Assembly (NCBI GenBank): GCA_963850225.1
Contig: CAWKLD010000002.1
Coordinates: forward strand, 10,107-74,106
DNA length: 64,000 bases
From: an uncultured delta proteobacterium
Lineage (GTDB): Bacteria; Desulfobacterota; Desulfobacteria; Desulfobacterales; Desulfatirhabdiaceae
Direction: 5' to 3'
The translations under genes and the position numbers were made by a program. Positions 2,190 through 64,000 of this stretch are shown here, one piece after another. Each line of letters opens with the position of its first letter. The first letter of the stretch is position 1. Below the pieces are notes generated by a model. It was not told the origin of the DNA and did not search any database. It saw nothing but the letters and a program-made list of their open reading frames with translations.

Positions 2190-3146
2190 ATGCATAAATT
2201 AATGATTGTGGATGACGATGCGATCCTTGCCACGCATCTTGAAGAACTCCTGGTTGCAATGGGATATCATGTGCTTGCAGTTTCTTCATCCGGACAAGAA
2301 GCCATTGATATCGCCCGTCAGGTCTTGCCTGATCTGATCCTGATGGACATTCTCTTTGCAAACCAGGATATGGACGGCATCGAAGCCGCCGGAATCATAA
2401 ACCAGGAGCTGGACATCCCAGTTGTTTATATATCCGGCCATTCTCAGGAAGAAATCATTCAGCGGTCCCGGACATCCGGAGCTTACGGATTTCTGTCCAA
2501 ACCGCTCTCCACGGAACAAATCAAACCGACGGTAGAGATTGCCATCTATAAAAAAGAAGCGGATCGAAAACTTCGCAAAGCCTTCGATGAACTGGACAGA
2601 CAGGTCATGGCACGCACTGCGGAATTATCGCGTGCAAACAAACTGCTGAGCACGGAAGCCGCCGAACGGAAACGGGTGAATCTTGAACTTCAGGAAAAGA
2701 AAAGAGAACTTGAATATAAATCCCTGAATCTTGAAGAAACCAATGCTGCGCTGAAGGTCTTATTAAAGCAGCGAAAAGAAGACCGTCTGCAACTGGAAGA
2801 AAAAGTCATTGCCAATGTCCGGGAATTTGTGCTTCCTTTCATTGAAAGACTGAAACAGACCGGACTTACCGACACCCAATCCACATTCACCGGAATTGTT
2901 GAGACCAACTTGAAAGACATTACCGCACCGTTTTCCCCCAAACTCTCCCCCCGGTACATGACCTTGACACCTAACGAAATTAACGTGGTCAACCTGGTCA
3001 AACAAGGCAAAAGAACCCGTGAGATCGCTGACCTTCTGGATCGCACATACGGCACGGTCGGCTCACGAAGGTGTCATATTCGAAAGAAAATCGGCATTAA
3101 GGGGAAAAAAGCCAATCTCAGGACCCAACTTCTGTCTTACCAGTGA
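2190..3146 (+). CDS. response regulator: receiver domain, coiled coil and LuxR-type HTH
   Basis: N-terminus MIVDDD...LILMDI...SKPL receiver. Long Glu/Lys/Leu coiled-coil segment. C-terminus LTPNEINVVNLVKQGKRTREIADLL...IRKKIG is a LuxR/GerE HTH. Confidence 0.8.
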   Translation: MHKLMIVDDDAILATHLEELLVAMGYHVLAVSSSGQEAIDIARQVLPDLILMDILFANQDMDGIEAAGIINQELDIPVVYISGHSQEEIIQRSRTSGAYGFLSKPLSTEQIKPTVEIAIYKKEADRKLRKAFDELDRQVMARTAELSRANKLLSTEAAERKRVNLELQEKKRELEYKSLNLEETNAALKVLLKQRKEDRLQLEEKVIANVREFVLPFIERLKQTGLTDTQSTFTGIVETNLKDITAPFSPKLSPRYMTLTPNEINVVNLVKQGKRTREIADLLDRTYGTVGSRRCHIRKKIGIKGKKANLRTQLLSYQ

Positions 3147-4728
3147 TTCGGTCCACCCATTTCCAGTGAATTCTGTCTGCTGTCACGGAATATTTCAGAA
3201 AGCCGTTCTCCAGCGCATTGGACAGCGCGGATACCAGTTTGTCACGGCCGGCACCTGTCGCCGGCAGATGATCCGCCAGGTCATTCAATAAGTCACGGGA
3301 ATATTTCGCTGGAGAGCGGATTGTCCAATCCCCCAGTTTTTCAAGCGCATTTTCCATCATCATGTCATAGATGACCACGGTGCGTTCCAGGTTCACCAGA
3401 GGCCAAGCCTCTTCTTCCGACGCTTCTCCAGCAGCCATGCGTTCGGCAACGAGACCAAGATACCGTTTGAAATCGTTTTCCCAGTGAATGACGATTTCAT
3501 CCAGCATCTGGCGGCTTACCGCCGGTGTTTCAACGATGGCCCGGTTGGCATGATAATCTGACCAGTCGTTTGAAAGAATCTTAATTCCCAGCTTGTCGCA
3601 GTCCTGCCGAACCCTTGTACCGGGAAAAGGGGCAAGCAAATGAAATCCATACGAAACCCCCAGTTTTTTTAGCTCCTCGCCAAAGGCAAGGGTTTCCTTC
3701 AGGGTTTCCGGCGTCTCTCCCGGCAGGCCCAGAATAAACGAGCCATGCGGCTGAAGCCCGACCTGATTGCACAGGTTTACTGCCTCAATCACCTGGCTTA
3801 AGGTAATTCCCTTTCGAATGGTTTTCAAAATATCGGCGTTTCCGGATTCAAGGCCGAAACTGACCGCCTGGCAGCCTGCATCTTTCATCCGCTGGAGAAC
3901 TTTCAGAGAAACCGTATCCACTCGCGCAAACGATGTCCATTTGACTTTCAGGTTTCTTTTCAGAATCTCATCGCATACCGCGAGGCAGTGCTGGGCGTTG
4001 GCGGTAAAGAGATCATCGGCCACATTGATCTGACAGAAACTGTAACCGGCCAGGATCCCCATTTCATCCACCACTTTTACCGGATCACGGTATCGGACCT
4101 TCGCCCCCACCATTTTTCTGCCCACGCAAAATATGCATGGATACGGACAGCCGCGACTCGTGGTCATGGAAATCGGCATTCCCAGTGCCCGGTATCTGCC
4201 AAGCGCCAGAAGATGCCGGGCAGGCGTCTCCAGCCTATTCACGTCAATGGGATGGGACCTTTTTCCGGTTGAAACAATGCAGTCAGCCTGACGAAACACC
4301 AGTCCGGGAATGTCCTGCCAGTTTCTTCCTTTGCCGGCCGCTGCGACAATTTCGACAAGGGTATCCTCGCCTTCCCCCAAAACCGCAATATCCAGCTCCG
4401 GATAGGCAGATAGCGAAGTTTCGGCGCAAAAGGTCACGTGCGGACCGCCCATGACCGTCAGACAGCCTGGATGCCATCTCCTGGCATCCTGAATGATTCC
4501 GATAGCACGGTCAAACGTCATGGTAACAGCAGTTGCAGCGACAATATCGGGATTGAATTGCGCCAGCTTCGACCGGAAATCGGCTTCAATATAGGGGAAA
4601 ACCACATAATCGAGGATCTCGACTTCAACGCCGGCTTTTTCCAGGGCCGCGGCCAGATAAGCCAGGCCCAGCGGCGGCGAAGGGTTTTCGGACAAGGGAT
4701 AAAATGGATTGATCAATAAACAGCGCAT
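3118..4728 (-). CDS. B12-binding domain radical SAM protein
   Basis: 536 aa. N-terminus LINPFYP...PPLGLAYLAAAL...MGGPHVTF is a B12-binding-like domain. SRGCPYPCIFCVG carries the CX3CX2C radical SAM motif. Its 3' end overlaps the convergent regulator by 29 nt. Confidence 0.8.
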   Translation of the reverse strand: MRCLLINPFYPLSENPSPPLGLAYLAAALEKAGVEVEILDYVVFPYIEADFRSKLAQFNPDIVAATAVTMTFDRAIGIIQDARRWHPGCLTVMGGPHVTFCAETSLSAYPELDIAVLGEGEDTLVEIVAAAGKGRNWQDIPGLVFRQADCIVSTGKRSHPIDVNRLETPARHLLALGRYRALGMPISMTTSRGCPYPCIFCVGRKMVGAKVRYRDPVKVVDEMGILAGYSFCQINVADDLFTANAQHCLAVCDEILKRNLKVKWTSFARVDTVSLKVLQRMKDAGCQAVSFGLESGNADILKTIRKGITLSQVIEAVNLCNQVGLQPHGSFILGLPGETPETLKETLAFGEELKKLGVSYGFHLLAPFPGTRVRQDCDKLGIKILSNDWSDYHANRAIVETPAVSRQMLDEIVIHWENDFKRYLGLVAERMAAGEASEEEAWPLVNLERTVVIYDMMMENALEKLGDWTIRSPAKYSRDLLNDLADHLPATGAGRDKLVSALSNALENGFLKYSVTADRIHWKWVDRITGKTEVGS

Positions 4729-54254: not shown

Positions 54255-56037
54255 TCACGGGGAGGTGATCAGCGCGATCAAATCGAACACTTTTTCCTTG
54301 CAGGCTCTTTCACATCTGCGACAGGCCACGCCATCGCAAAGGGCCAGATTAATGGATATTCTATAATTCGCATTTTCCGTTTCCATTTCCAGCGCATTCT
54401 CGGGGCATTCCGCAACGCAGTCTTCACAGCCGATACAGCCGTCAAATCGGCAGGATCGCATGCGTCCGAGATCGGAGACGATTTTCAAGCCCATCTGGCC
54501 GAAATCCGGAATATCTCTTTCAACGGTTTTAATGACTTCCGGACGCCTGGTCACTTCATGGATTTCGGGCAGGCCATATTTTTTCAGAAATTTCTGGTAT
54601 TGCACAAAGGGCATGCCTTCGGTCCAGAAAGACAATTCCAGAATATAGACCTTTTCAAACGTCTTGGAAGCTGCAAACATACAATGATGTTGCCTGAGGT
54701 CATCGGCAACCTTCTTCATATGCCAGAGCGCATCATCCGATTTTACCACATCCCGGGCCATGGCCAGAGATGTGTTGCCAACCTGATAAATTTTTTGAAC
54801 ACCGGAAGGAATCATACCGATTTCCTGGGCTTTTAATAGCATCCACATAGGTACCGGATGCCCCGGAGCAGTAAGCGACTTTGATATCGTTCAAGTCGAT
54901 GCCTGCCTCATGGCATAGCGTGATATGACCGGCCCTGACGGCACCGATCGCCTTGCCGGCCTCCAGCAGGTCTTTTTCGGTAAATTTGATTCCATTTGGT
55001 AGATGAATTTCCGTATCCAGTGTGTTGATGCGGGGAATTTTGATCAACCTGGCTTTCAGACATTGGCTGATCAGTCCGACCACGCCGGTTCCGGTGATTC
55101 CGACGGCCGCGTAATCACCGGTCTCAAGACATCTTCCGGTATTCGGATCGACCGTATCTCCCGAACGGGCATGCATGTCCTGACCGAGAACAAAGGTTTT
55201 CAGTCGTCCTTTTAGGGGTTTGTCGCTGACTGGTCGTGCCGGTTATGCAGCCGTTGGAAGAATTGTGATCGCTCTTATCGCTCATCCTCGAAATAAATTT
55301 TGATTCGGATTCAATCGGCCGGATGTGCGCGAAGAACATCCGGCCAGCGTGACGGTTTCGGGTTCAAATTCGACATCACTGATCGCACCTGGAAGCGCCA
55401 GAAGTCCATCTTCGATATGCTGGCCTTCCAGTGCAGGTCCGGCGGCAGTGGAGCCGGTATAAACCTTTCCGTTTACCAGCAGCGCAATCTCGTTATTGGT
55501 ACCATAGTCCGTTACAACAACAATCTCTTTCTGATCCAGCATGCCGGTTTGAATCATCATGGCCAACGCATCGGCCCCGATTTCATGCCGAACCGCAGGT
55601 GGAATCAGAACATCCACTTCGGGTAACAAATCAAGGCCTGAAATTTCATGCGCTTTTACGATCATGGCATCGCGCTTGGGCGGCACCACGCCCAATGCAT
55701 CCAGTTTTCTTTTGCCGGCATAGGCCAGATCCCTGAATTCAATTTTCTGGAAAAGAGATAGTTGTATGGGATTTCCACATACCGCCACGCGAACGATCTG
55801 ATTTTTTTCTAACCGCAAATTGTCAATCACCTTGTTGACGGCATCCAGTACAATCTGATGGGTTTTCTCCAGACCGATCTCAAGGGCAAAGTGCAGATGG
55901 TCTATTACATTGGCACCGGGAAGAGGATGGCGTGTGGTAACAGCCGTTGACAAAATCATGCCGTTCTGGTCCAGATCCAGAGCCTGTCCGCGAAATCCGC
56001 TGGTGCCTAAATCCAGTGCAATACCGATTTTGCTCAA
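54255..56037 (-). pseudogene. RamA/RACo-type ATP-dependent reductive activase of corrinoid proteins (ASKHA fold plus C-terminal 2x[4Fe-4S] ferredoxin), about three frame switches
   Basis: Pieces 55282..56037, 55124..55339, 54733..55176 and 54255..54848. IALDLGTSGFRGQALD and VVVTDYGTNNEIAL ASKHA motifs. C-terminus CIGCEDCVAECP and CDGVACRRCERAC. The first and third pieces share a frame. The last switch is at T4 54831-54834. Confidence 0.75.
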
Positions 56038-56080
56038 TTGATGTTTTGCTCCTTTATTAATAACCTGTCGGCCGTATCGA

Positions 56081-56305
56081 TCAAGCTTGTGGATCCTTCA
56101 GCAGGCGCCGGCATTTCATACAAATCCAGTTCTCTTCGTCATCGGTCGATATCTGGGGAAAATGACCGTATAAATCATAATGGTCATTTCGAATCCGAGT
56201 CCAGTATTGTTTCACTTCCGTACAGGACAACCGCCTTCCCAAATCGTTTTCCGCGTCCGAATGCCAGCGGCCACATTTTGTACAACTCAGCATGGTCTCG
56301 ATCAA
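56081..56305 (-). CDS. small zinc-ribbon-like protein
   Basis: 70-74 aa (TTG at 56305 or ATG at 56293). CTKCG...(X48)...CMKC pairs of Cys. 43 bp upstream of the activase gene. Weak RBS. Confidence 0.4.
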   Translation of the reverse strand: MIETMLSCTKCGRWHSDAENDLGRRLSCTEVKQYWTRIRNDHYDLYGHFPQISTDDEENWICMKCRRLLKDPQA

Positions 56306-56423
56306 TTCCCGAGAAAAGAACGGTGAACAAATGTCCGATATTCAGAACTTGATGTGGATATTTTTTCGAAATGGCGAATGCAATTCAGTCCGGATTATTG
56401 CATGCTTACGTGATTTTGATCCC

Positions 56424-56454
56424 AAAAAACGCATTCCGGGTTTGACCCGGAATG
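56424..56454 (-). terminator. rho-independent terminator downstream of mtaB
   Basis: CATTCCGGG / CCCGGAATG 9-bp stem (56432-56440 / 56446-56454) with a 5-nt loop, followed on the minus strand by CGTTTTTTGGG (A6 at 56424-56429 on plus). Confidence 0.7.
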
Positions 56455-56464
56455 GCGGTATTTT

Positions 56465-56500
56465 CTGCCGGTTCCCAATCTGGAGCTTGGGAACCGGCAG
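56465..56500. repeat. perfect 14-bp inverted repeat (CTGCCGGTTCCCAA-N8-TTGGGAACCGGCAG)
   Basis: Read directly: arms 56465-56478 and 56487-56500. It lies between the mtaB stop and the terminator. A third 7-bp hairpin sits at 56534-56553. Confidence 0.8.
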
Positions 56501-56553
56501 ATGCGCGGATTATGGCGCAGTTCAACACTTTCGGTCCGTTCAGTCGAACGGAC

Positions 56554-57929
56554 TTAGAGCCCATATGAGCCAGGATTGAATCCCTTGACATTCTTGTATT
56601 TTTTCAGACAATCGTCAATGAATGTACCTTCGTCATCCGGCAGGGCTTCCAGATCTTTCATGGCCTTATTCAAAGCCTCAGTCTCGAGCTTGGTGAGTTT
56701 CATCTTTTTGTCGCCCAGAATGATTTTGCCGGCCTCGATCGCGCCGGCTCTGGCACTGGCATAATTGCTCTTTCCCCGGTTCTGGACAATGGCGTTGCCA
56801 ACTTTCCATGCATTGTCCGGTGCCAGAATCAGACTGTGGGAATCCCGATACATATCGGAGTTGACCAGAATTTCTTTCATCTGCTGCTGATAGCCCAGTT
56901 CGATGGCGGAGTTGAACATGGCGCAGTCGTACCCGAGGATCTCGGCGAAGACCGATGTCGTGGTGGCGCCGAACATGTCATGGTATTCCACGGCCTCGTT
57001 GCTCCACACGTCGGTTACGGCGGCAATGAGGTTGCCCGCCAGGTCGGAATGCGCGCAAGCGCTGGTTTTACCCTCGCAGGAGATGGGAACACCGGCCATG
57101 GCTTTGATGATGGGATCTTCGTATGCACAGTCTTTGGTCGGACCAGTGGCGCCGCATTCGTAGGCCACCAGGGTTCTGGATGCGGCAATGGCACGGGACA
57201 AAGCAGCCATGACTGAGGCACGTCCTTGGATGTCATACCGCCGGCCATGAACATGGCGGTATTGGCCTCGGAGCAGTTAGGTGTCGCCGCCAGGGATGCA
57301 GTTGTTCTTTTTGGCGATAGCGACGATCTGATCCCACATCCACTCCATATCGATGGCGCCCAGTACACCGATACCGAACAGAATCCCCGCGATATCGTTA
57401 CGGATGATGGCATGGTCAAAAACCTCTTTGCCACCCATGGACTCGATGGAAACAATATCTGCATATTTGGCACATTCTTTGAAGGATTCAATGACCTCCG
57501 GGTGTAGTCACTTTGACGCATGTCGACCATATCGGGTTTGCGCAGATCGGCGATGGTAGCGCGATATGCAGCCTTCAATCCATATTTGGACAGGTAATCA
57601 TCCATCTGTTTGGCTGTCTGTGCGGCAATTTCTCCACCCCATTTCGGGTTGTGGGTCATCTGGAAGATATGTTCATTTTCAATCTGCAAAGTTGGATGTC
57701 CGACAATTACCATTCTTTCCAGGGCATCGCCGTTGGCCTTTTCATATTCCCTCAGCAATGTTTTCATGGTCTTTTCACTGCCGGGCCGGGGATGCGGCAC
57801 CACCTCGGGATGTACCAATCCGCCGCCGATTACAATTCCTCTCTTGGTGGTCACGGGATACTTGGCCGTGCCGAACATCATTTCCGCGCCGTCTTTGTAA
57901 GCCATCTTGGTGAGTTTTTTACGTGCCAT
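56554..57929 (-). pseudogene. mtaB: methanol--corrinoid protein Co-methyltransferase (MtaB family), three frame switches
   Basis: Pieces 57929 to about 57500 (frame A), about 57500-57285 (frame B), about 57285-57222 (A), and 57210..56554 (B). Collinear with Methanosarcina MtaB as I recall it: MARKKLTKMAYKDG...TAKYPV, SIESMGGKE, GGDT-CSEANTAMF, GKTSACAHSD, ...KGFNPGSYGL. Zn-ligand positions (Glu, Cys, Cys) are retained. Confidence 0.85.
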
Positions 57930-58092: not shown

Positions 58093-58108
58093 TGCAATCG
58101 AAGTGCCA
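58093..58108 (-). promoter_or_regulatory. sigma-54 (-24/-12) promoter of mtaB
   Basis: The minus strand reads TGGCACTTCGATTGCA, an exact TGGCAC-N5-TTGCA match, 164 nt upstream of the mtaB ATG and just downstream of the activator gene stop. Confidence 0.75.
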
Positions 58109-58175: not shown

Positions 58176-59663
58176 TCATGCTGTGTTCGGATGGGATTCC
58201 CAAATGTAACCATCGGTGACAGATCTGCTTGTTAAATGTAACAACCGGTTACATACAGATGATGACAATCCGTATTCCGAAAGCCTCAGATAGAGCAGTC
58301 GCCGCGTAATACCCAGCATTTTTGCCGCTGCCAGTTTATTGCCTTTGGTCAATTCAAGCGTTTTAACCAGCAACTCCTTTTCAACATCCCGAAGCCGAAC
58401 CCCCCCGTCGGGCAGTTGATTAATCATGCCCGTGGACTGAATTTCCATGCCAGTTTTCCGGCTCACTTCTTCCGGAAGGTCCTGAATGGTGATTTCTCCA
58501 TTTGAACAGGTCACCAGAAGCCGTTCTACAATATTGGCCAACTCCCGCACATTGCCCGGATAGCCGTAGCACATCAAAAGGTCTTTGACTTCTTCGGTCA
58601 GGACCGGTACTGCCAGATCCATTTCTTTTGCATAAACTTCCAGAAAATGATTCAGCAGCAGGGGAATGTCTTCCTTCCTGTCTCTCAACGGCGGGATAGT
58701 GATGGGTACGACATTGAGACGATAGAACAGATCATCTCGGAAATATCCCGATTTTACATCTTTTTTCAAATCCTGGCTGGTAGCTGCAATAATCCGCACA
58801 TCGGTTTTGATGGTGGCATTGCCTCCAACCCGCTGAAATTCTTTTTCCTGGAGTATTCTGAGCAGCTTGACCTGAAGCGCCTTGTCCAGTTCGCCGATTT
58901 CATCCAGAAACAAGGTGCCACCACTGGCAATTTCAAATTTGCCTTTACGCTGCTGCATCGCCGTGGTGAAGGCGCCGCGCTCGTGGCCGAACAGTTCGCT
59001 TTCCATCAGACTGGCTGGGATGGCGCCGCAGTTGATCGCAACAAAAGGAAAGTTTCTGCGAGTGCTGGTCTGACAGATCGTTCGGGCAATCAACTCTTTG
59101 CCCGTACCGCTTTCACCCTGAATCAAAACAGTGGCCGATGTAGGTTTCAATTTTTCGATCAGTCGATAAATGTCGTTAATGCCCCGGCTTTTACCGATAA
59201 TCACCCCAAAACGCTGTCTGGGTTCATCGGGTTTGACTGCCGTTTCTGATGACGATCTTTTCGTCCCCATTTTTTGGGCGATTCCCATCAGAATCGTGTT
59301 GAGACTGTGTTTGAGGCCCGGGCCTGAGTATTCATAAAACCCGCCGCCCTGGTATAAAAAAGGACCCATCGGACCGGTAATCAGAATCGCGGCATCGGGC
59401 GCAATTCGCCTGGCCTGTTGAAAAAAACCGCCGCCACCCATTTCCGAGGATTTAATGTCGATGATAATGATGGATACCGTTTTTGAATGACTGTTCAGTA
59501 CGGCCAGTCCCTGATGCTCATCCGCCACCCACAGCGGATCGAAGTCCTTTGAAGAAATAAACCGCGACAGAGACTGAAATGCCCGATACCGGTCATCGAC
59601 AATCAGAACCAGCGGCTTATCGCCTTTTGTCGGTCTGAACGTTTTTTCTTCTGAACTTATCAT
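58176..59663 (-). CDS. sigma-54-dependent response regulator (NtrC-type: receiver, AAA+, Fis HTH)
   Basis: 495 aa. Receiver LVLIVDD...[11 protein letters not shown]+ [11 protein letters not shown] and the GAFTTA (GAFTGA variant) loop. C-terminal [19 protein letters not shown]. Start overlaps the cobW-like stop (ATGA at 59660-59663). Confidence 0.85.
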
Positions 59664-60788
59664 TTGTTAAGCCTGCACTCCTGCTCGGACCCTTGTCGCA
59701 CTGACAAGGAATACGGATCATTGATTACGGCTTTCACTGCCGCCTGCCCGTTTGAGCGGCACTGCTGAAATGCCTTCTCGATCATCTCCCGGTTCAGGCT
59801 TTTGCCGATAACGGACACCTTGCTTTGGTTAAATGGCCGGATCGGCTGAATGGACACATCGCCGGAAGCCAGCTCCAGCACCTTCCAGGCAGTCTCTGTT
59901 CGGAATATTCCCTTGGCGCGAACGATTTCACCGTATCCGGACTGTGCGTCTGTCATCCGATGAAAAAGGCTTTCCAGGGAAAGCAGATCAAACCCGCTGT
60001 CGGCAAATACAAGGCCGAAGGATTCATAGCCCAAGGCGTCCGCAGTCTTTGTCAAAATGGGGCTGCGATCCGGCATCTTCCGGATGATCGAGTATTGTAA
60101 CCACCGGTCCTTTGCCGTTATTGGCTTTCGGCTGAACAGACGCTTTCCGGTGGCTGTCCGAATGTGTCGTTTTGTCACGATCAAGTTTGAATCCGGAACC
60201 AACAGACAGGGCGGCGTGATACTCGCTCCAGTTGATGGCTCCGAATTCGGTCATGAATACCGTCAGTTCGGGATTGATCGCGGAGATGGCGGACTGGATC
60301 ACCATGGCCTTTCGCTGATCTACCCGGTCACATTTGTTCAACATGATGATATGAGCGTTTTCCACCTGGGATTCGACAAAATGCCGGTTGGCCCGATACA
60401 GCCCCATGAAACCGGTGGCATCGGCAATCAGTATTTTGTGAATTCGGCTGATTTCCCGCTCGAACAACTGCGCTTCGAGAATCCACTGAATTTGCCCGAT
60501 TGTGGCGACCCCAGTGGGTTCTATGATGATTCTGTCCGGCTTTATGGTGCGGCTGATTTCCAGAATCTGAGCCCGAAAATCAGCCTGAAGCGTACAGCAG
60601 ATGCATCCGCTGGGCATTTCGACCACATTGCCGCCTTGTGATGACAGAAGCTCGCCATCGATACCTACATCACCAAATTCATTCACCAACACCACGATTT
60701 TTTCATCAGAATCCCATTCACGAAGGATTCGCGTGATAAACGTAGTTTTGCCGGAGCCTAAAAATCCAAAAATCACATCAACAATCAT
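59660..60788 (-). pseudogene. CobW/HypB/UreG-family (G3E) GTPase, one frame switch
   Basis: ORFs 60024..60851 and 59660..60202 are collinear. Likely start is ATG 60788 (MIVDVIFGFLGSGKTTF). CXCC motif GCICCT, NKCD, His-containing linker, and CobW_C-like tail (GYESFGLVF...VRAKGIF). Switch somewhere in 60050-60200. Confidence 0.8.
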
Positions 60789-61082
60789 CTTCGATACACT
60801 TTCCTGGTACACGGTGAAAGTTGTTAACGGATAGAAATAAACCTGAACCATGAAAATGCGATGTTCATCCGCCCTCTGAAGTCAACTTCTTATTCCGGTT
60901 CATATTCAAACTGACAGCTTTGTCAGCTTCGCAGCGATGAATTACGACGTACTGAAAAAGTGCAGTAATCATCGCTGCTCGTTTGGTTTCGCGGTCTCGC
61001 CTGAATGCTTGCCGGAACGTCATTTTTGAAACAAAATGAAATCACAACAAAAAAGAATTAAACGATTCGCCATCAGATCCTG

Positions 61083-61829
61083 TTAACCGTTCCACTTGCT
61101 TCGCAAAGATTCCCATTTTTCGCCGGCCAACGCATCTTCTGCCATGCCCGGCGCCTGGCTTGCTTCCTTGCCATATACGCCAAGATCGTAACTTGTCACA
61201 TATTCCTCGCAAACCGCACCGCCGCCGCAGATAAAGGGAATTTGAATGCCGGCGGCTTTGAGCTGATGCGCGATTTTGGGAAATGCCGTCATGGTGGTGG
61301 TCATCAGAGCGGTCCCGGTAACCATCACGGGACGATGCTCTTTACATGCCGCTACCACCTTGTCAACCGGCACATCGGCACCCAGATCAATTACCTCGAA
61401 TCCATTGGCGTTAAGCAGGGCATTAACAATCACCTGACCGATGTCATGAATATCGCCTTCGGCCGTATGGGTAACGACTTTGCCTTTTCTATCCATGGAT
61501 TTGCCCATGGCCTTCTCGCACTTGGCAATGCCGATATTCATCGCATCCGAAGAGAGAATGACCTGGGGCAGGAAATATACGCCTTCTTCCCACAGTCGGC
61601 TCACCTCGTTCATGCCGGCAATAAGTGCATCGTTAATGATGTCGAGCGGTGTTTTTGTTTTCAGGGCCTTATCCACGGCAGGGGCAATTCCATCTTCATC
61701 CCCGTCCACCACGAATTTTGCGATACTTTGCAGAATGGGATCTTTGGAAACCTGTTTGGCTTGTCCAACTTTTTCGAGGTCAAGATCGTAACGTTTAAAA
61801 ATGTTTGAGAAATCATTCAAAATTTTCAT
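61083..61829 (-). CDS. mtaC: methyltransferase cognate corrinoid protein (MtaC-type, B12-binding)
   Basis: In-frame ATG 61829 within ORF 61083..61889, preceded by GGAAAGGAG. N-terminal helical cap domain, then B12 motif GDIHDIGQ (DxHxxG), ...VMVTGTALMTTT..., GGGAV. Confidence 0.85.
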   Translation of the reverse strand: MKILNDFSNIFKRYDLDLEKVGQAKQVSKDPILQSIAKFVVDGDEDGIAPAVDKALKTKTPLDIINDALIAGMNEVSRLWEEGVYFLPQVILSSDAMNIGIAKCEKAMGKSMDRKGKVVTHTAEGDIHDIGQVIVNALLNANGFEVIDLGADVPVDKVVAACKEHRPVMVTGTALMTTTMTAFPKIAHQLKAAGIQIPFICGGGAVCEEYVTSYDLGVYGKEASQAPGMAEDALAGEKWESLRSKWNG

Positions 61830-61911: not shown

Positions 61912-62913
61912 CTAATGCGCCTTGGCTACCTCCAGCATGGCCAGAAGGTTTTCCATTGGCGTACCCGGTGCAACGGCGCACCCCGGTGCCAGCATCTGGA
62001 TTCCGTCTGCGATGGATTCCTCGCTTCCGGCTCTGACCGTTGCGGCATCTTTCATAAAAAGTGTGGTGGCGGTATCCACACCGCCCATTAAAATGATATC
62101 CGGCCCGCATTTTTCCCGGGCCAATTGAGCGCTGGCTTTCGGCTCCAGACTCAGTATCTCTGCACCGGTTTGCCCCATCCAGGCAACAATGTTATCCACA
62201 TTGCCGCAGATATGCAGAATTTTAGGCACCATGATTCCTTCGAACTGGGCGGTTTGATAGTCCATCTCATAGTCCCTGTAAGTTTTTGGTGCAATCAGGT
62301 CCGGCGAAGCAGTCATGTCCTCACAGGAAATCATATCGGCTCCGGCCTCGACCAGGGCCTGGGCAAGCATATTGCCGGCTCTTTGTCCGATCTCCAGAAA
62401 CGGCCGCATTTTCTCCGGCGTCTTGAAGCTGGCCTTGAGCAGGGGAACCGTGTCGACCAGGGCGCCGGCGATGGTGAAGGGGCCGATGATCCCGCCGATA
62501 ATGAGCACTTCGTCTTTCAGCTCCTTTTTTAAAATGCGGACCGCTTTCAGCAATTCCGGAATCCTGCCGCGCGAGAGAAAATCCTTTGGAAATATCGGCG
62601 TATCATTCAGGGTATAGGGAGATGGGTGTGCAATTCCGGGAATTCCCTCTGTACCGCCGGATTTGACCCCGCATCCAAGGGCCTCGGCTTCAAATGTCTG
62701 GCAGAAAGGGACTCTTACCGCATCAAAACCGACGACGGTATAGGCGGCCAGGGCCTGTTTGGCCATGTCTTCACCTTTTTCGTGACCGCTGGGCCAGAAG
62801 GCCTGAACCTTTTCCATTTGCTCGTAGGTGACCGTGGAATTGGCACAAAAACAAGGCATACGGTCGGGTTTCTGGTGGTTTAACACTGCCATCACGCGTT
62901 CTTTGGCATTCAT
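61912..62913 (-). CDS. mtaA: methylcobamide methyltransferase of the uroporphyrinogen decarboxylase (URO-D/MtaA) family
   Basis: 333 aa. MNAKERVMAVLNHQKPDRMP start. Zn motif HICGN (H-x-C) plus the downstream Cys in LAPGCAV. RBS AGGAGG. First gene behind the riboswitch. The methyl acceptor (THF versus other) is not deducible. Confidence 0.8.
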   Translation of the reverse strand: MNAKERVMAVLNHQKPDRMPCFCANSTVTYEQMEKVQAFWPSGHEKGEDMAKQALAAYTVVGFDAVRVPFCQTFEAEALGCGVKSGGTEGIPGIAHPSPYTLNDTPIFPKDFLSRGRIPELLKAVRILKKELKDEVLIIGGIIGPFTIAGALVDTVPLLKASFKTPEKMRPFLEIGQRAGNMLAQALVEAGADMISCEDMTASPDLIAPKTYRDYEMDYQTAQFEGIMVPKILHICGNVDNIVAWMGQTGAEILSLEPKASAQLAREKCGPDIILMGGVDTATTLFMKDAATVRAGSEESIADGIQMLAPGCAVAPGTPMENLLAMLEVAKAH

Positions 62914-63100
62914 ACATTTACCTCCTGATTAAATATGAAATTATGAAACAACGAAATCATTACAAAATATAGATTATTTCGGACTGGAAAACCGAATCGA
63001 ATGGAAACTGTCAGATAAGCAGAAAACGAATTGACGGTTGCAATTCACGGGGGTTCCAGGGCAAATGCCGCATCGATGGTTGAATCCAAGGATTTCAATC

Positions 63101-63130
63101 AAAAATGCGCTCTTTACCCTCGAAAGAGAG
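63101..63130 (-). terminator. possible attenuator hairpin of the riboswitch expression platform
   Basis: CTCTTT / AAAGAG 6-bp stem (63110-63115 / 63123-63128) followed on the minus strand by CGCATTTTT. Weak, AT-rich stem. Confidence 0.3.
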
Positions 63131-63142
63131 GCATCACGACAT

Positions 63143-63336
63143 GAGCAGGTATCCTGACTTGCGGCCCGAGCGGACTCTTTTCGCCTTTAGCCAGTAAACT
63201 ATATCGAAGGCCTGTGACAGAGTCCGTTCTTCGAGGATTCGATCTCAAACAGAAAACGCCTCGAAGCATTCCTTAAGGAACGCGCGTCGCTTACAGTTGC
63301 GGGGCAGTGACGGATTTACACCATCTTCCCTGCTAT
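63143..63336 (-). promoter_or_regulatory. cobalamin (B12) riboswitch in the mtaA-mtaC leader
   Basis: The minus strand reads AGCAGGGAAGAUGGUGUAAAUCCGUCACUGCCCCGCAACUGUAAGCG ... ACUGGCUAAAGGCG ... GCAAGUCAGGAUACCUGCU. These are the conserved GGGAA/GGUG.AA.UCC/CCCGC.ACUGUAA core, the B12 box AGUCAGGAUACCUGC, and P1 closing AGCAGG/CCUGCU. Confidence 0.8.
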
Positions 63337-63349
63337 AAAAACTAATTTG

Positions 63350-63391
63350 AAATCATTGATTATAAATCAATATAAATATAAATCATTGATT
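63350..63391. repeat. two copies of palindromic 12-mer AAATCATTGATT, 30 bp apart, just downstream of the sigma-54 promoter
   Basis: Copies at 63350-63361 and 63380-63391. The AATCA-T-TGATT core is self-complementary. A degenerate AAATCAAT lies in between. Confidence 0.5.
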
Positions 63392-63406
63392 TACAGATTG
63401 TAGTAA

Positions 63407-63422
63407 TGCAATAAAAATGCCA
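63407..63422 (-). promoter_or_regulatory. sigma-54 (-24/-12) promoter of the mtaA-mtaC-cobW-regulator operon
   Basis: The minus strand reads TGGCATTTTTATTGCA (TGGCAT-N5-TTGCA). It lies about 60 nt upstream of the riboswitch aptamer and about 490 nt upstream of the mtaA ATG. Confidence 0.7.
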
Positions 63423-63602
63423 CCCTATCCGGTTTTGTTTAATAAATATATTAATAACATTAATTGCGGATAGTTACAAAATTATGTTCGTATCGATTCG
63501 ATTTAACGCGTGATGTCATGGTAAGCATGATAATGGGTAAGGCTTTTGAGTCATATCGACTATACTCAATATTATTGGAATGTTGATAGTGCGACACGAA
63601 TG

Positions 63603-64000
63603 TCACGGTATGACAGCGTGCTGCGCAGCGGTTTGTGAGCGGAGGAGGGAAGTGTCCAACTCAAATTCTTTAATTTTTCGCCACAAGGTTCTGGTATTTA
63701 TTCCCGTAAAATGTGCCGTCTGGGTGACATTGCCTTCGTATCGTTTCAGCGACTCGAATATATAGGCTTTCTCGAAGCGCTTTTCGACCATGCTTCGGGC
63801 CACTTTGAACGGAATATCGATATTGACCGAATATGGGGATTCTCCCACTGTCGCGCCGGTCATCGCGCCTGAAAAATGGAGGGTATCGATGGTGTCGCCT
63901 TCTGTGACGACAAAAGCCCGTTCGAGAACATTTTCCAGTTCACGAACGTTTCCCGGCCAGACATGCTGCATGAGCCGAGCCATTGCCTGAGTGGATAACG
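63603..64000 (-). CDS. sigma-54-dependent transcriptional activator, C-terminal part only (runs off the window)
   Basis: ORF 63603..63983 continues to the window end in the same frame. WPGNVRELENVLERA (AAA+ sensor II) and C-terminal Fis-type HTH QTAHFTGINTRTLWRKIKEF. Confidence 0.8.
   Translation of the reverse strand, partial: LSTQAMARLMQHVWPGNVRELENVLERAFVVTEGDTIDTLHFSGAMTGATVGESPYSVNIDIPFKVARSMVEKRFEKAYIFESLKRYEGNVTQTAHFTGINTRTLWRKIKEFELDTSLLRSQTAAQHAVIP

Follow-up and report, generated by a model that had tools for sequence, protein, structure and literature searches.

A conserved cobalamin riboswitch in the leader of a corrinoid methyltransferase operon with a predicted sigma-54 promoter in Desulfobacterales

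Few riboswitches are as widespread as those for cobalamin, whose targets usually serve to make or import B12 or to do without it. Why should such a switch be placed before genes that use the cofactor? This question is raised by a 64,000-nt stretch of DNA from an uncultured delta proteobacterium of the Desulfobacterales (contig CAWKLD010000002.1, positions 10,107 to 74,106; here called the window), in which an RNA of this class was found in the leader of an operon of mtaA, mtaC and a COG0523 GTPase gene. Corrinoid-dependent methyl transfer matters for the turnover of methanol and methylated compounds in anoxic sediments and soils, and the locus extends the target rule to this process. New here is a known B12 sensor in a conserved and previously unreported regulatory context, a corrinoid methyltransferase operon with a sigma-54 promoter.

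A cobalamin riboswitch behind a sigma-54 promoter

An initial annotation of the window, made from the letters alone, had recognized a cobalamin riboswitch core and B12 box upstream of mtaA-mtaC and had proposed a covariance-model scan as a check. The Rfam scan of the 64-kb window showed a match to RF00174 (Cobalamin) at 63361..63127 on the minus strand, covering model positions 1-189 with 57.9 bits (E = 9e-12), well past the gathering score of 31.5 bits, and this was the sole Rfam match across the window. Both the conserved core pattern GGGAA...GGUG...CC...CUGCCCCGCAACUGU and the B12 box were present, and by every sequence test applied the RNA was a member of RF00174. A full-length RF00174 match with a P6 extension goes with adenosylcobalamin selectivity; the long P6 extension of the window aptamer only suggests that it belongs to the adenosylcobalamin class. 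The aptamer together with the hairpin P13 was found before mtaA in 31 leaders in total (the window and 30 others) from Desulfobacterales-type genomes and metagenomes. The elements of the riboswitch, promoter and operon in the window are the following.

63127..63361, minus strand: cobalamin riboswitch aptamer with a long P6 extension (RF00174; orthologues with 46.6-65.6 bits at 12 genome loci)
63145..63160, minus strand: B12 box AAGUCAGGAUACCUGC, part of the RF00174 match
63293..63307, minus strand: L5 core CUGCCCCGCAACUGU, identical in 31/31 leaders, with CCCC as the proposed kissing-loop partner of L13
63105..63134, minus strand: P13 hairpin (AUGCCUCUCUUU / AAAGAGCGCAU) with loop L13 UUCGAGGG at 63124-63117, present in 31/31 leaders
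63407..63422, minus strand: sigma-54 promoter motif TGGCATTTTTATTGCA with -24 GG and -12 GC in GG-N10-GC spacing, exact pattern match
62913..62926, minus strand: Shine-Dalgarno (SD) sequence AGGAGG (62926-62921) and mtaA start codon (62913), in an AAUCAGGAGGUAARUGUAUG block conserved in the clade of the window
61912..62913, minus strand: mtaA-like methylcobamide methyltransferase gene, URO-D fold (Pfam URO-D, E = 5.8e-64; NCBIfam PRK06252, 302 bits against a cut-off of 244)
61083..61829, minus strand: mtaC-like corrinoid protein gene with DxHxxG motif (GDIHDIG; Pfam B12-binding_2 and B12-binding)
59660..60851, minus strand: COG0523 (CobW-like) GTPase gene with P-loop GSGKTT and CxCC motif (GCICC; Pfam cobW and CobW_C), split over two frames

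In all 31 leaders, P13 was located directly 3′ of the Rfam aptamer, with a loop of the form (U/C)UCG(A/C/U)GGG(Y). Covariation of the stem was assessed by folding each sequence and by swapping arms between loci for 25 distinct arm pairs: cognate arms showed a mean of -11.8 kcal/mol compared to -5.9 for swapped arms (Mann-Whitney p = 8e-10), and the arms were as diverse as GCCGUGC/GCACGGC, GUCGUU/AACGAC, CCACCU/AGGUGG and CUCUUU/AAAGAG. Loop positions C2, G3 and G5-G7 were invariant. The GGG of L13 (in GAGGG) is complementary to the CCC(C) of L5, and the hairpin is the P13/L13 regulatory hairpin of cobalamin riboswitches. The initial annotation had seen in this place a weak hairpin and U-run followed by a further leader of about 190 nt; the hairpin lies at 63134-63105 and the U-run at 63105-63101, with 187 nt from there to the mtaA ATG at 62913, and the hairpin proved to be P13 with covarying arms, an integral part of the riboswitch rather than an accessory. 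An L5-L13 kissing loop is predicted from the complementarity without covariation support, since both loops are invariant. A role of the GAGGG in L13 as the SD sequence of a leader peptide was rejected, as those leaders that were inspected by eye contained no start codon at a suitable distance.

The exact sigma-54 pattern (TGGCAC-N5-TTGCW, exact spacing) occurred in two copies in the window, compared to 0.46 expected. The 3′ end of the motif upstream of the riboswitch lies 46 nt from the start of the Rfam match and about 70 nt from the conserved core, for which the previous estimate of about 60 nt was a fair one.

Downstream of the riboswitch, the Pfam and NCBIfam matches of the MtaA-like and MtaC-like proteins agreed with the description of these genes as using rather than making B12. 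Both genes of the proposed mtaA-mtaC operon were found as described, and a third gene that had been missed, encoding the COG0523 GTPase, belongs to it. This GTPase gene clusters with mtaABC and ram genes, and its product has the P-loop, CxCC and CobW_C features of subfamily 13. An identical sequence to the window MtaA was not on record in an exact look-up. All NCBIfam equivalogs scored under their cut-offs (MtaA_Meth 295 against 400, MtaC_Meth 283 against 420, and MtaB_Meth, on two fragments of the mtaB gene described below, 182 and 316 against 720), and methanol as the substrate is therefore inferred from family membership. Thus, a complete RF00174-type riboswitch, consisting of aptamer and P13, is shown to be located in the leader of an mtaA-mtaC-COG0523 operon with a predicted sigma-54 promoter.

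Conservation, activators and origin of the arrangement

Relatives of the window MtaA showed 76-93% identity among the 120 matches listed, and the few with a named source were from metagenome-assembled genomes (MAGs) of Desulfobacterales or Deltaproteobacteria. A scan of one genome per species gave 62 loci (numbered with L below), and a metagenome scan gave 18 more leaders. RF00174 was found on the same strand upstream of mtaA at L001-L009, L011, L013 and L015, and was absent in the other loci scanned (L010, L012, L014, L016-L050, L054 and L060). The gene order mtaA, mtaC, COG0523, EBP2 was common to all riboswitch-positive genome loci, and the activator gene EBP1 was found upstream in all of them except L011. 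The 18 metagenome leaders share the riboswitch core and P13. In 22 of the 27 loci whose upstream sequence was long enough, a sigma-54 motif of comparable quality preceded the riboswitch core by 51-259 nt, compared to about 0.05 expected per locus search window (background of 0.17 per kb per strand). The stacking of promoter and riboswitch proposed in the initial annotation is thus real, and the composite is shown to be conserved across many Desulfobacterales-type lineages. Nine leaders, those of the window, L001-L004, L063, L064, L101 and L137, make up what is called the close clade. In the metagenome leader L063 (290-520), about 170 nt of sequence that its close relatives lack are inserted between motif and aptamer (alignment A3).

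Could the RF00174 match be due to chance, or the riboswitch be a decaying relic? Several genes of the window are frameshifted, as would fit a relic: the COG0523 gene (59660-60851), mtaB (56554-57929) and a ramA-type activase gene (54255-56037), all on the minus strand, are each split between frames. The parts of the COG0523 gene lie in one frame in the close relatives L002 and L004, and are split also in L001 (an 'MFD' MAG with 98% identical MtaA); the frameshifts in the window look like assembly indel errors rather than marks of pseudogenes. Together with the score and E-value of the match and with 31 leaders in which L5 is invariant, L13 nearly so and the P13 arms covary, this leaves chance or decay with practically no credibility.

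The surroundings of the operon contain further regulatory features and the rest of the methyltransferase system.

63603..64000, minus strand: EBP1, NtrC-type sigma-54 activator, 3′ end of the gene, cut by the window end (Pfam AAA_lid_14 and HTH_8)
63591..63606, minus strand: candidate activator-binding site (upstream activating sequence, UAS), palindrome GTGACAttcgTGTCgC, about 170 nt upstream of -24 and overlapping the EBP1 stop codon, conserved in the close clade (alignment A3)
63391-63380 and 63361-63350, minus strand: two copies of AATCAATGATTT in the first approximately 50 nt of the predicted transcript, the second overlapping the 5′ end of the Rfam match
58176..59663, minus strand: EBP2, second sigma-54 activator
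58093..58108, minus strand: second sigma-54 motif TGGCACTTCGATTGCA, between EBP2 and the mta genes (exact pattern)
54255..57929, minus strand: mtaB (frameshifted) and ramA-type reductive activase gene (fragmented; Pfam MtaB, RACo middle and C-terminal; NCBIfam Rama_corrin_act)

Sigma-54 activators are abundant in this phylum. The full-length EBP1 orthologue of L002 contains Response_reg, Sigma54_activat (AAA+) and HTH_8 domains, and a gene for a PAS histidine kinase lies directly upstream of it. The promoter is probably served by a two-component, NtrC-type activator. The palindrome upstream of the promoter, of the type GTGACA-N4-TGTCAC in the close clade, was kept as TGTCA-N5-TGACA or GTGAC-N6-GTCAC in L001-L004, L101, L137, L081 and L082. 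It is a candidate activator site because of its position about 170 nt upstream, where a site for activator binding is expected. The copies of AATCAATGATTT, each near-palindromic and 30 nt apart, are located just 3′ of the sigma-54 motif, and related words (AATGATTT / AAATCATT) were found at the equivalent position in L001-L003. A match to the IHF-type consensus WATCAANNNNTTR is seen in the first copy, although its position is downstream, not upstream, of the promoter.

All parts of the enzyme system were present in the window: an MtaB-type protein (Pfam MtaB on two fragments, E = 3e-57 and 4e-93), MtaC with DxHxxG, an MtaA-type protein and a reductive activase. The mtaB-ramA operon has its own activator (EBP2), its own sigma-54 motif and a leader of about 165 nt without a riboswitch. 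From this sequence organization, the two halves of the enzyme system would therefore be under separate activators, with only one half carrying the B12 sensor. By the gene order downstream of the switch, the operon under riboswitch control would be the one that encodes the corrinoid-binding subunit.

The same gene order and a sigma-54 motif were also found in L017, L023 (Desulfospira joergensenii) and L027, which lack the riboswitch and gave no RF00174 signal even at E <= 1. The distance from motif to ATG was 146-308 nt in these three loci and in L042 and L046 of a more distant group, compared to 391-713 nt in the riboswitch loci. Since the riboswitch-less relatives keep the motif on a shorter leader, sigma-54/activator control would be the older layer. 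Judged from these leaders, one lineage appears to have gained the riboswitch near the promoter, within the leader of an already activator-dependent operon.

Other MtaA loci differed in their surroundings. In the distant group L032-L044 (Desulfomonilaceae / Syntrophaceae MAGs with the order EBP1-mtaA-mtaC-mtaB), the sigma-54 motif was found about 900-1050 nt upstream of mtaA, and the interval between motif and mtaA contained no convincing ORF in the one locus checked (L032, e.g. 2517-3500). The long leaders of L032, L035, L037 and L043 gave no credible Rfam match at E <= 1, with only a chance-level miRNA-family match upstream of the motif in L037; these leaders of about 1 kb may hold an undescribed RNA element. 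Close MtaA homologues of L010, L012, L014, L018, L021, L025, L026 and L029, from other Desulfobacterota MAGs, adjoin PYLIS_2 / PYLIS_3 elements (77-86 bits), and no cobalamin riboswitch was found at these eight loci. The PYLIS neighbors indicate mtbB/mttB methylamine methyltransferase genes and hence an apparent use of pyrrolysine-dependent systems for methylamines by these bacteria. Homologues 72-75% identical to the window MtaA were found in MAGs labeled as Dehalococcoidales (Chloroflexota; L019, L020 and L022), which suggests gene transfer across phyla or mis-binning.

Output and polarity of the switch

What binding of B12 does to the operon would depend on the region 3′ of the aptamer, where three features were found in addition to P13.

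63101..63105, minus strand: U-tract GCAUUUUUGAUU directly after P13, candidate intrinsic termination point, invariant in 8/9 close-clade leaders, including the more distant L004
63070..63108, minus strand: hairpin H2 (GCAU...UGAUU...AAUCA...AUGC), the base of which shares the GCAU of the P13 base (RNAalifold consensus, alignment A2)
63056..63069, minus strand: conserved block GGCAUUUGCCCUGG, complementary to L13 and the P13 3′ arm (-17.1 kcal/mol) and more weakly to SD/AUG (-13.9 kcal/mol)

The U-run seen initially is present in the window, and its conservation is confined to the close clade. The P13 stems of this clade were weak (-4.5 to -10.9 kcal/mol), and a sister group (L009, L013, L080 and L081) has AUUUGU after P13; the clades with U-rich tails are those with the weakest P13 stems. 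A weak P13 with a U-rich tail fits a hairpin whose action requires the kissing loop. In the 5′ arm of H2, the Us of the tract are mostly mismatched, and the rest of H2 varies freely. As H2 pairing does not explain the conservation of the U-tract, this points to selection on the U-tract itself. P13 with the U-tract is the only regulatory signal that both adjoins the aptamer and is conserved beyond structural need.

We tentatively favor, with slightly less than even confidence, an account in which the operon would be controlled by an "activator AND NOT excess free B12" gate with termination at 63101-63105. Transcription would be initiated only upon a signal from the kinase and activator, presumably methanol or a related methyl donor, and the nascent leader would sample the pool of free corrinoid, most likely adenosylcobalamin. 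The ligand would dock L13 on L5 and thereby stabilize the weak P13 stem (about -8 to -10 kcal/mol) right before UUUUU, so that RNA polymerase would terminate near 63101-63105 and B12 would lower the output of the operon (OFF). In the absence of ligand, P13 would be a poor terminator and read-through would result, with L13 and the 3′ arm in a more stable pairing with GGCAUUUGCCCUGG, stacked on H2. The likely benefit would be that more apo-MtaC and COG0523 helper are made when corrinoid is scarce, as a form of cofactor capture, and that synthesis is throttled when the pool is full. The OFF polarity as such, that is, B12-promoted termination after P13 in the clade of the window, is held at about even odds or slightly below, ahead of ON polarity. 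To our knowledge, every experimentally characterized cis-acting cobalamin riboswitch is an OFF switch that works via the L5-L13 contact. The reasoning of the initial annotation, that OFF control would be counter-productive here and that the element should therefore be an ON switch or otherwise special, found no support in the RNA, as the architecture in the close clade is that of a conventional OFF terminator.

Several observations weigh against termination after P13. In all other clades, P13 is strong (-9 to -23 kcal/mol) and no U-tract follows, so that P13 termination is not the general mechanism and the output step of those clades must differ. Even within the close clade, L101 (98% identical MtaA) has CAA in place of UUU and has lost the U-tract, while its H2 is perfectly paired. 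A terminator scan did not call the window hairpin. When P13 was locked and L13 blocked in silico, the accessibility of the SD sequence went up in 8/9 close-clade leaders (mean from about 0.20 to 0.35). It is in its physiological rationale that the account is weakest. Repression of a corrinoid protein while corrinoid abounds would be odd physiology. In Desulfotomaculum kuznetsovii, an unrelated organism, the trend was the opposite, with the methanol methyltransferase system "very low" without cobalt and B12 (PMC5770442).

The last two of these points speak for a natural cis-acting ON switch, in which corrinoid would license the corrinoid-protein operon and which, with the sigma-54 two-component activator, would form a substrate-AND-cofactor gate. 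Without ligand, GGCAUUUGCCCUGG would capture L13 and the P13 3′ arm, and the freed 5′ arm or another segment would mask SD/AUG, or the RNA would be exposed to Rho or RNase; with P13 locked by corrinoid, MtaA, MtaC and COG0523 would be synthesized only when substrate signal and cofactor are both present. Such a design has a homeostatic logic, with apo-MtaC matched to free corrinoid, and the B12-dependent eut and pdu operons are B12-induced. The ligand-free minimum free energy structure (MFE) of the window shows UCGUGAUGCCUCU (P13 5′ arm) paired with GGAGGUA...UAUGA in the SD region, and SD and AUG were also paired in the ligand-free RNAalifold consensus. The rise in SD accessibility upon P13 locking was from 0.21 to 0.66 in the window and from 0.01 to 0.40 in L004; L001 was lowered. 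The strong-P13 clades were unchanged, which argues against an ON switch of this kind. The P13 5′ arm was rejected as an anti-SD element: its pairing was not significant in the window (p = 0.10) and was lost in L003, L063 and L137 (CCUCU to CCACU, p = 0.6-0.8). In an ensemble analysis, the predicted partner of the SD sequence differed in nearly every full-length leader. In view of these conflicting accessibility and partner results, models of SD masking and long-range folding are not trustworthy here. Moreover, the conserved U-tract right after P13 is incompatible with ON polarity, and a natural cis-acting ON cobalamin riboswitch is not known to us, and none was found in the literature. An ON switch is considered rather unlikely, though it deserves to be taken seriously.

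The block GGCAUUUGCCCUGG is the best-conserved part of the leader in the close clade besides P13 and the SD sequence. Its dual complementarity was better than that of shuffled sequences (p <= 0.03) in seven of the eight closest members (MtaA >= 93%) and borderline in L004 (p ~0.05); it fails in L101 and was not found in other clades. In the ligand-free consensus of RNAalifold, GGCAUUUGCCCUGG was paired with L13 and the 3′ arm, and H2 was formed, in place of P13; this alternative pairing was backed by one-sided changes only and is broken by L004. A three-element translational switch, with L13 and the 3′ arm as anti-anti-SD and GGCAUUUGCCCUGG as anti-SD, was rejected as the mechanism, being limited to the close clade, failing in L101 and absent elsewhere. 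In locked-P13 models, GGCAUUUGCCCUGG was not reliably paired with the SD sequence, and from the folding models such a switch is possible as a secondary effect. A 20-codon upstream ORF starting at 63073 within the conserved block was also rejected: it has no SD sequence, its length varies from 18 to at least 50 codons, and it contains non-synonymous changes.

Beyond P13, the leaders have 82-500 nt without a conserved ORF, and the expression platform there is clade-specific. This leaves room for a functional aptamer with another output, such as Rho-dependent termination or RNase access, or with a corrinoid form other than adenosylcobalamin as the ligand, in which case polarity could not be predicted from sequence; the very stable P13 of many clades would form with or without ligand, and only the docking of L13 could change. 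We regard this as rather improbable, and an unusual ligand is disfavored by the full-length RF00174 match that includes the P6 extension. In the clade of L007 (3225-3260), L068 and L065, a short GC hairpin (CUGCGAUCGCAG in L007 and L068) and a U-rich tract were found about 10 nt after P13, and the CCGCU before the GC hairpin can pair with the P13 3′ arm. This hairpin may be a separate terminator-based platform, unlike that of the window.

In the clade of the window, a defined transcript with its 3′ end at the U-tract is plausible, and an early-terminated riboswitch RNA could act in trans as a small RNA, instead of or besides the action in cis. The eut system of Enterococcus and Listeria is similar in that a two-component system and a B12 riboswitch act on a catabolic operon that depends on B12. 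Yet at all loci the element lies in the sense leader directly behind the operon's own promoter, no protein-binding motif or ANTAR-type partner was seen, and the activators here act on DNA; action in trans is thus very improbable.

Either polarity would be of consequence. If the favored OFF account is true, more corrinoid-binding apoprotein and COG0523 helper when B12 is scarce would be a cofactor-capture strategy. If the ON switch is true, we know of no earlier natural cobalamin riboswitch that activates, and the element would be a compact AND gate that matches apoprotein to cofactor supply in methylotrophic bacteria of the sulfate-reducer type. The locus connects corrinoid status with the COG0523 proteins of methyltransferase systems, about which little is understood, and offers a defined natural composite of sigma-54 promoter and riboswitch within a few hundred bases that is open to experiment.

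Comparison with known systems

In a survey of 535 cobalamin riboswitch sites, the targets were B12 synthesis, B12 transport, cobalt transport and B12-independent isozymes only (PMC3766115). The targets in the window (MtaA, MtaC and the methyltransferase-associated COG0523 protein) fall in none of these four categories, in agreement with the oddity of placement before B12-using genes that had been remarked on initially. In the literature, no cobalamin riboswitch before corrinoid methyltransferase genes was found, though work on riboswitches of Desulfitobacterium hafniense could hold a precedent. Nor was a report found of one downstream of a sigma-54 promoter, an arrangement that is mechanistically permissible. 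A review of COG0523 proteins distinguishes the riboswitch-controlled true CobW from a subgroup that clusters with mtaABC and ram genes (subfamily 13 of Haas et al. 2009), for which no riboswitch was reported (PMC2770081).

The mta operons of acetogens (Sporomusa and Eubacterium), with the protein regulator MtaR and the COG0523 gene mtaW (PMC12456013; PMC2770081), are similar in containing mtaA, mtaB, mtaC, a COG0523 gene and an activase gene and in being induced through a dedicated regulator, but no riboswitch has been reported there. Transcriptome studies of acetogens placed cobalamin riboswitches on synthesis and transport genes; in Sporomusa they were described on such genes only, and a protein regulator was proposed for the mta genes (PMC12456013).

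Compared to canonical adenosylcobalamin riboswitches (e.g. E. coli btuB and Thermoanaerobacter tengcongensis), the element shares the full model, the B12 box, L5 and a P13 with a loop complementary to L5, and in the clade of the window also the P13 followed by a U-tract of transcriptional OFF members. It differs from them in that its targets use corrinoid rather than make, import or bypass it, and in that its promoter is sigma-54- and activator-dependent. Besides, P13 is located 180-500 nt from the start codon in most loci and hence cannot directly mask the ribosome site, and in many clades it is very stable without a U-tract.

Tandem SAM and adenosylcobalamin riboswitches on metE form a two-input logic gate (PMC9481103). 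There, as here, two independent inputs on one transcript gate one operon. Both inputs of the metE leader are RNA sensors, both are OFF and the target is a B12-independent isozyme, whereas the mta operon has a protein activator, acting at initiation, as one of its inputs and is itself a B12-dependent target.

Functionally, EutX/Rli55 and AspocR come closest. In Listeria, a B12 riboswitch controls the RNA AspocR, which is antisense to pocR, and pocR in turn activates B12-dependent propanediol genes. A cobalamin riboswitch is thus tied to a B12-dependent pathway in both cases, but the action in Listeria is antisense and indirect, whereas all parts of the locus described here are on one strand. 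In Enterococcus faecalis and Listeria monocytogenes, an adenosylcobalamin riboswitch in a small RNA (EutX/Rli55) together with EutVW makes the B12-dependent eut operon conditional on B12. Like the mta locus, this system combines a cobalamin riboswitch with a two-component system over B12-dependent catabolism, with the cofactor sensed by RNA and the substrate by protein. It works in trans, through a decoy RNA that sequesters an ANTAR antiterminator and is truncated by the riboswitch, so that the net effect of B12 is positive, whereas at the mta locus the riboswitch is located in cis in the leader of the operon and the activator is a DNA-binding protein that acts with sigma-54.

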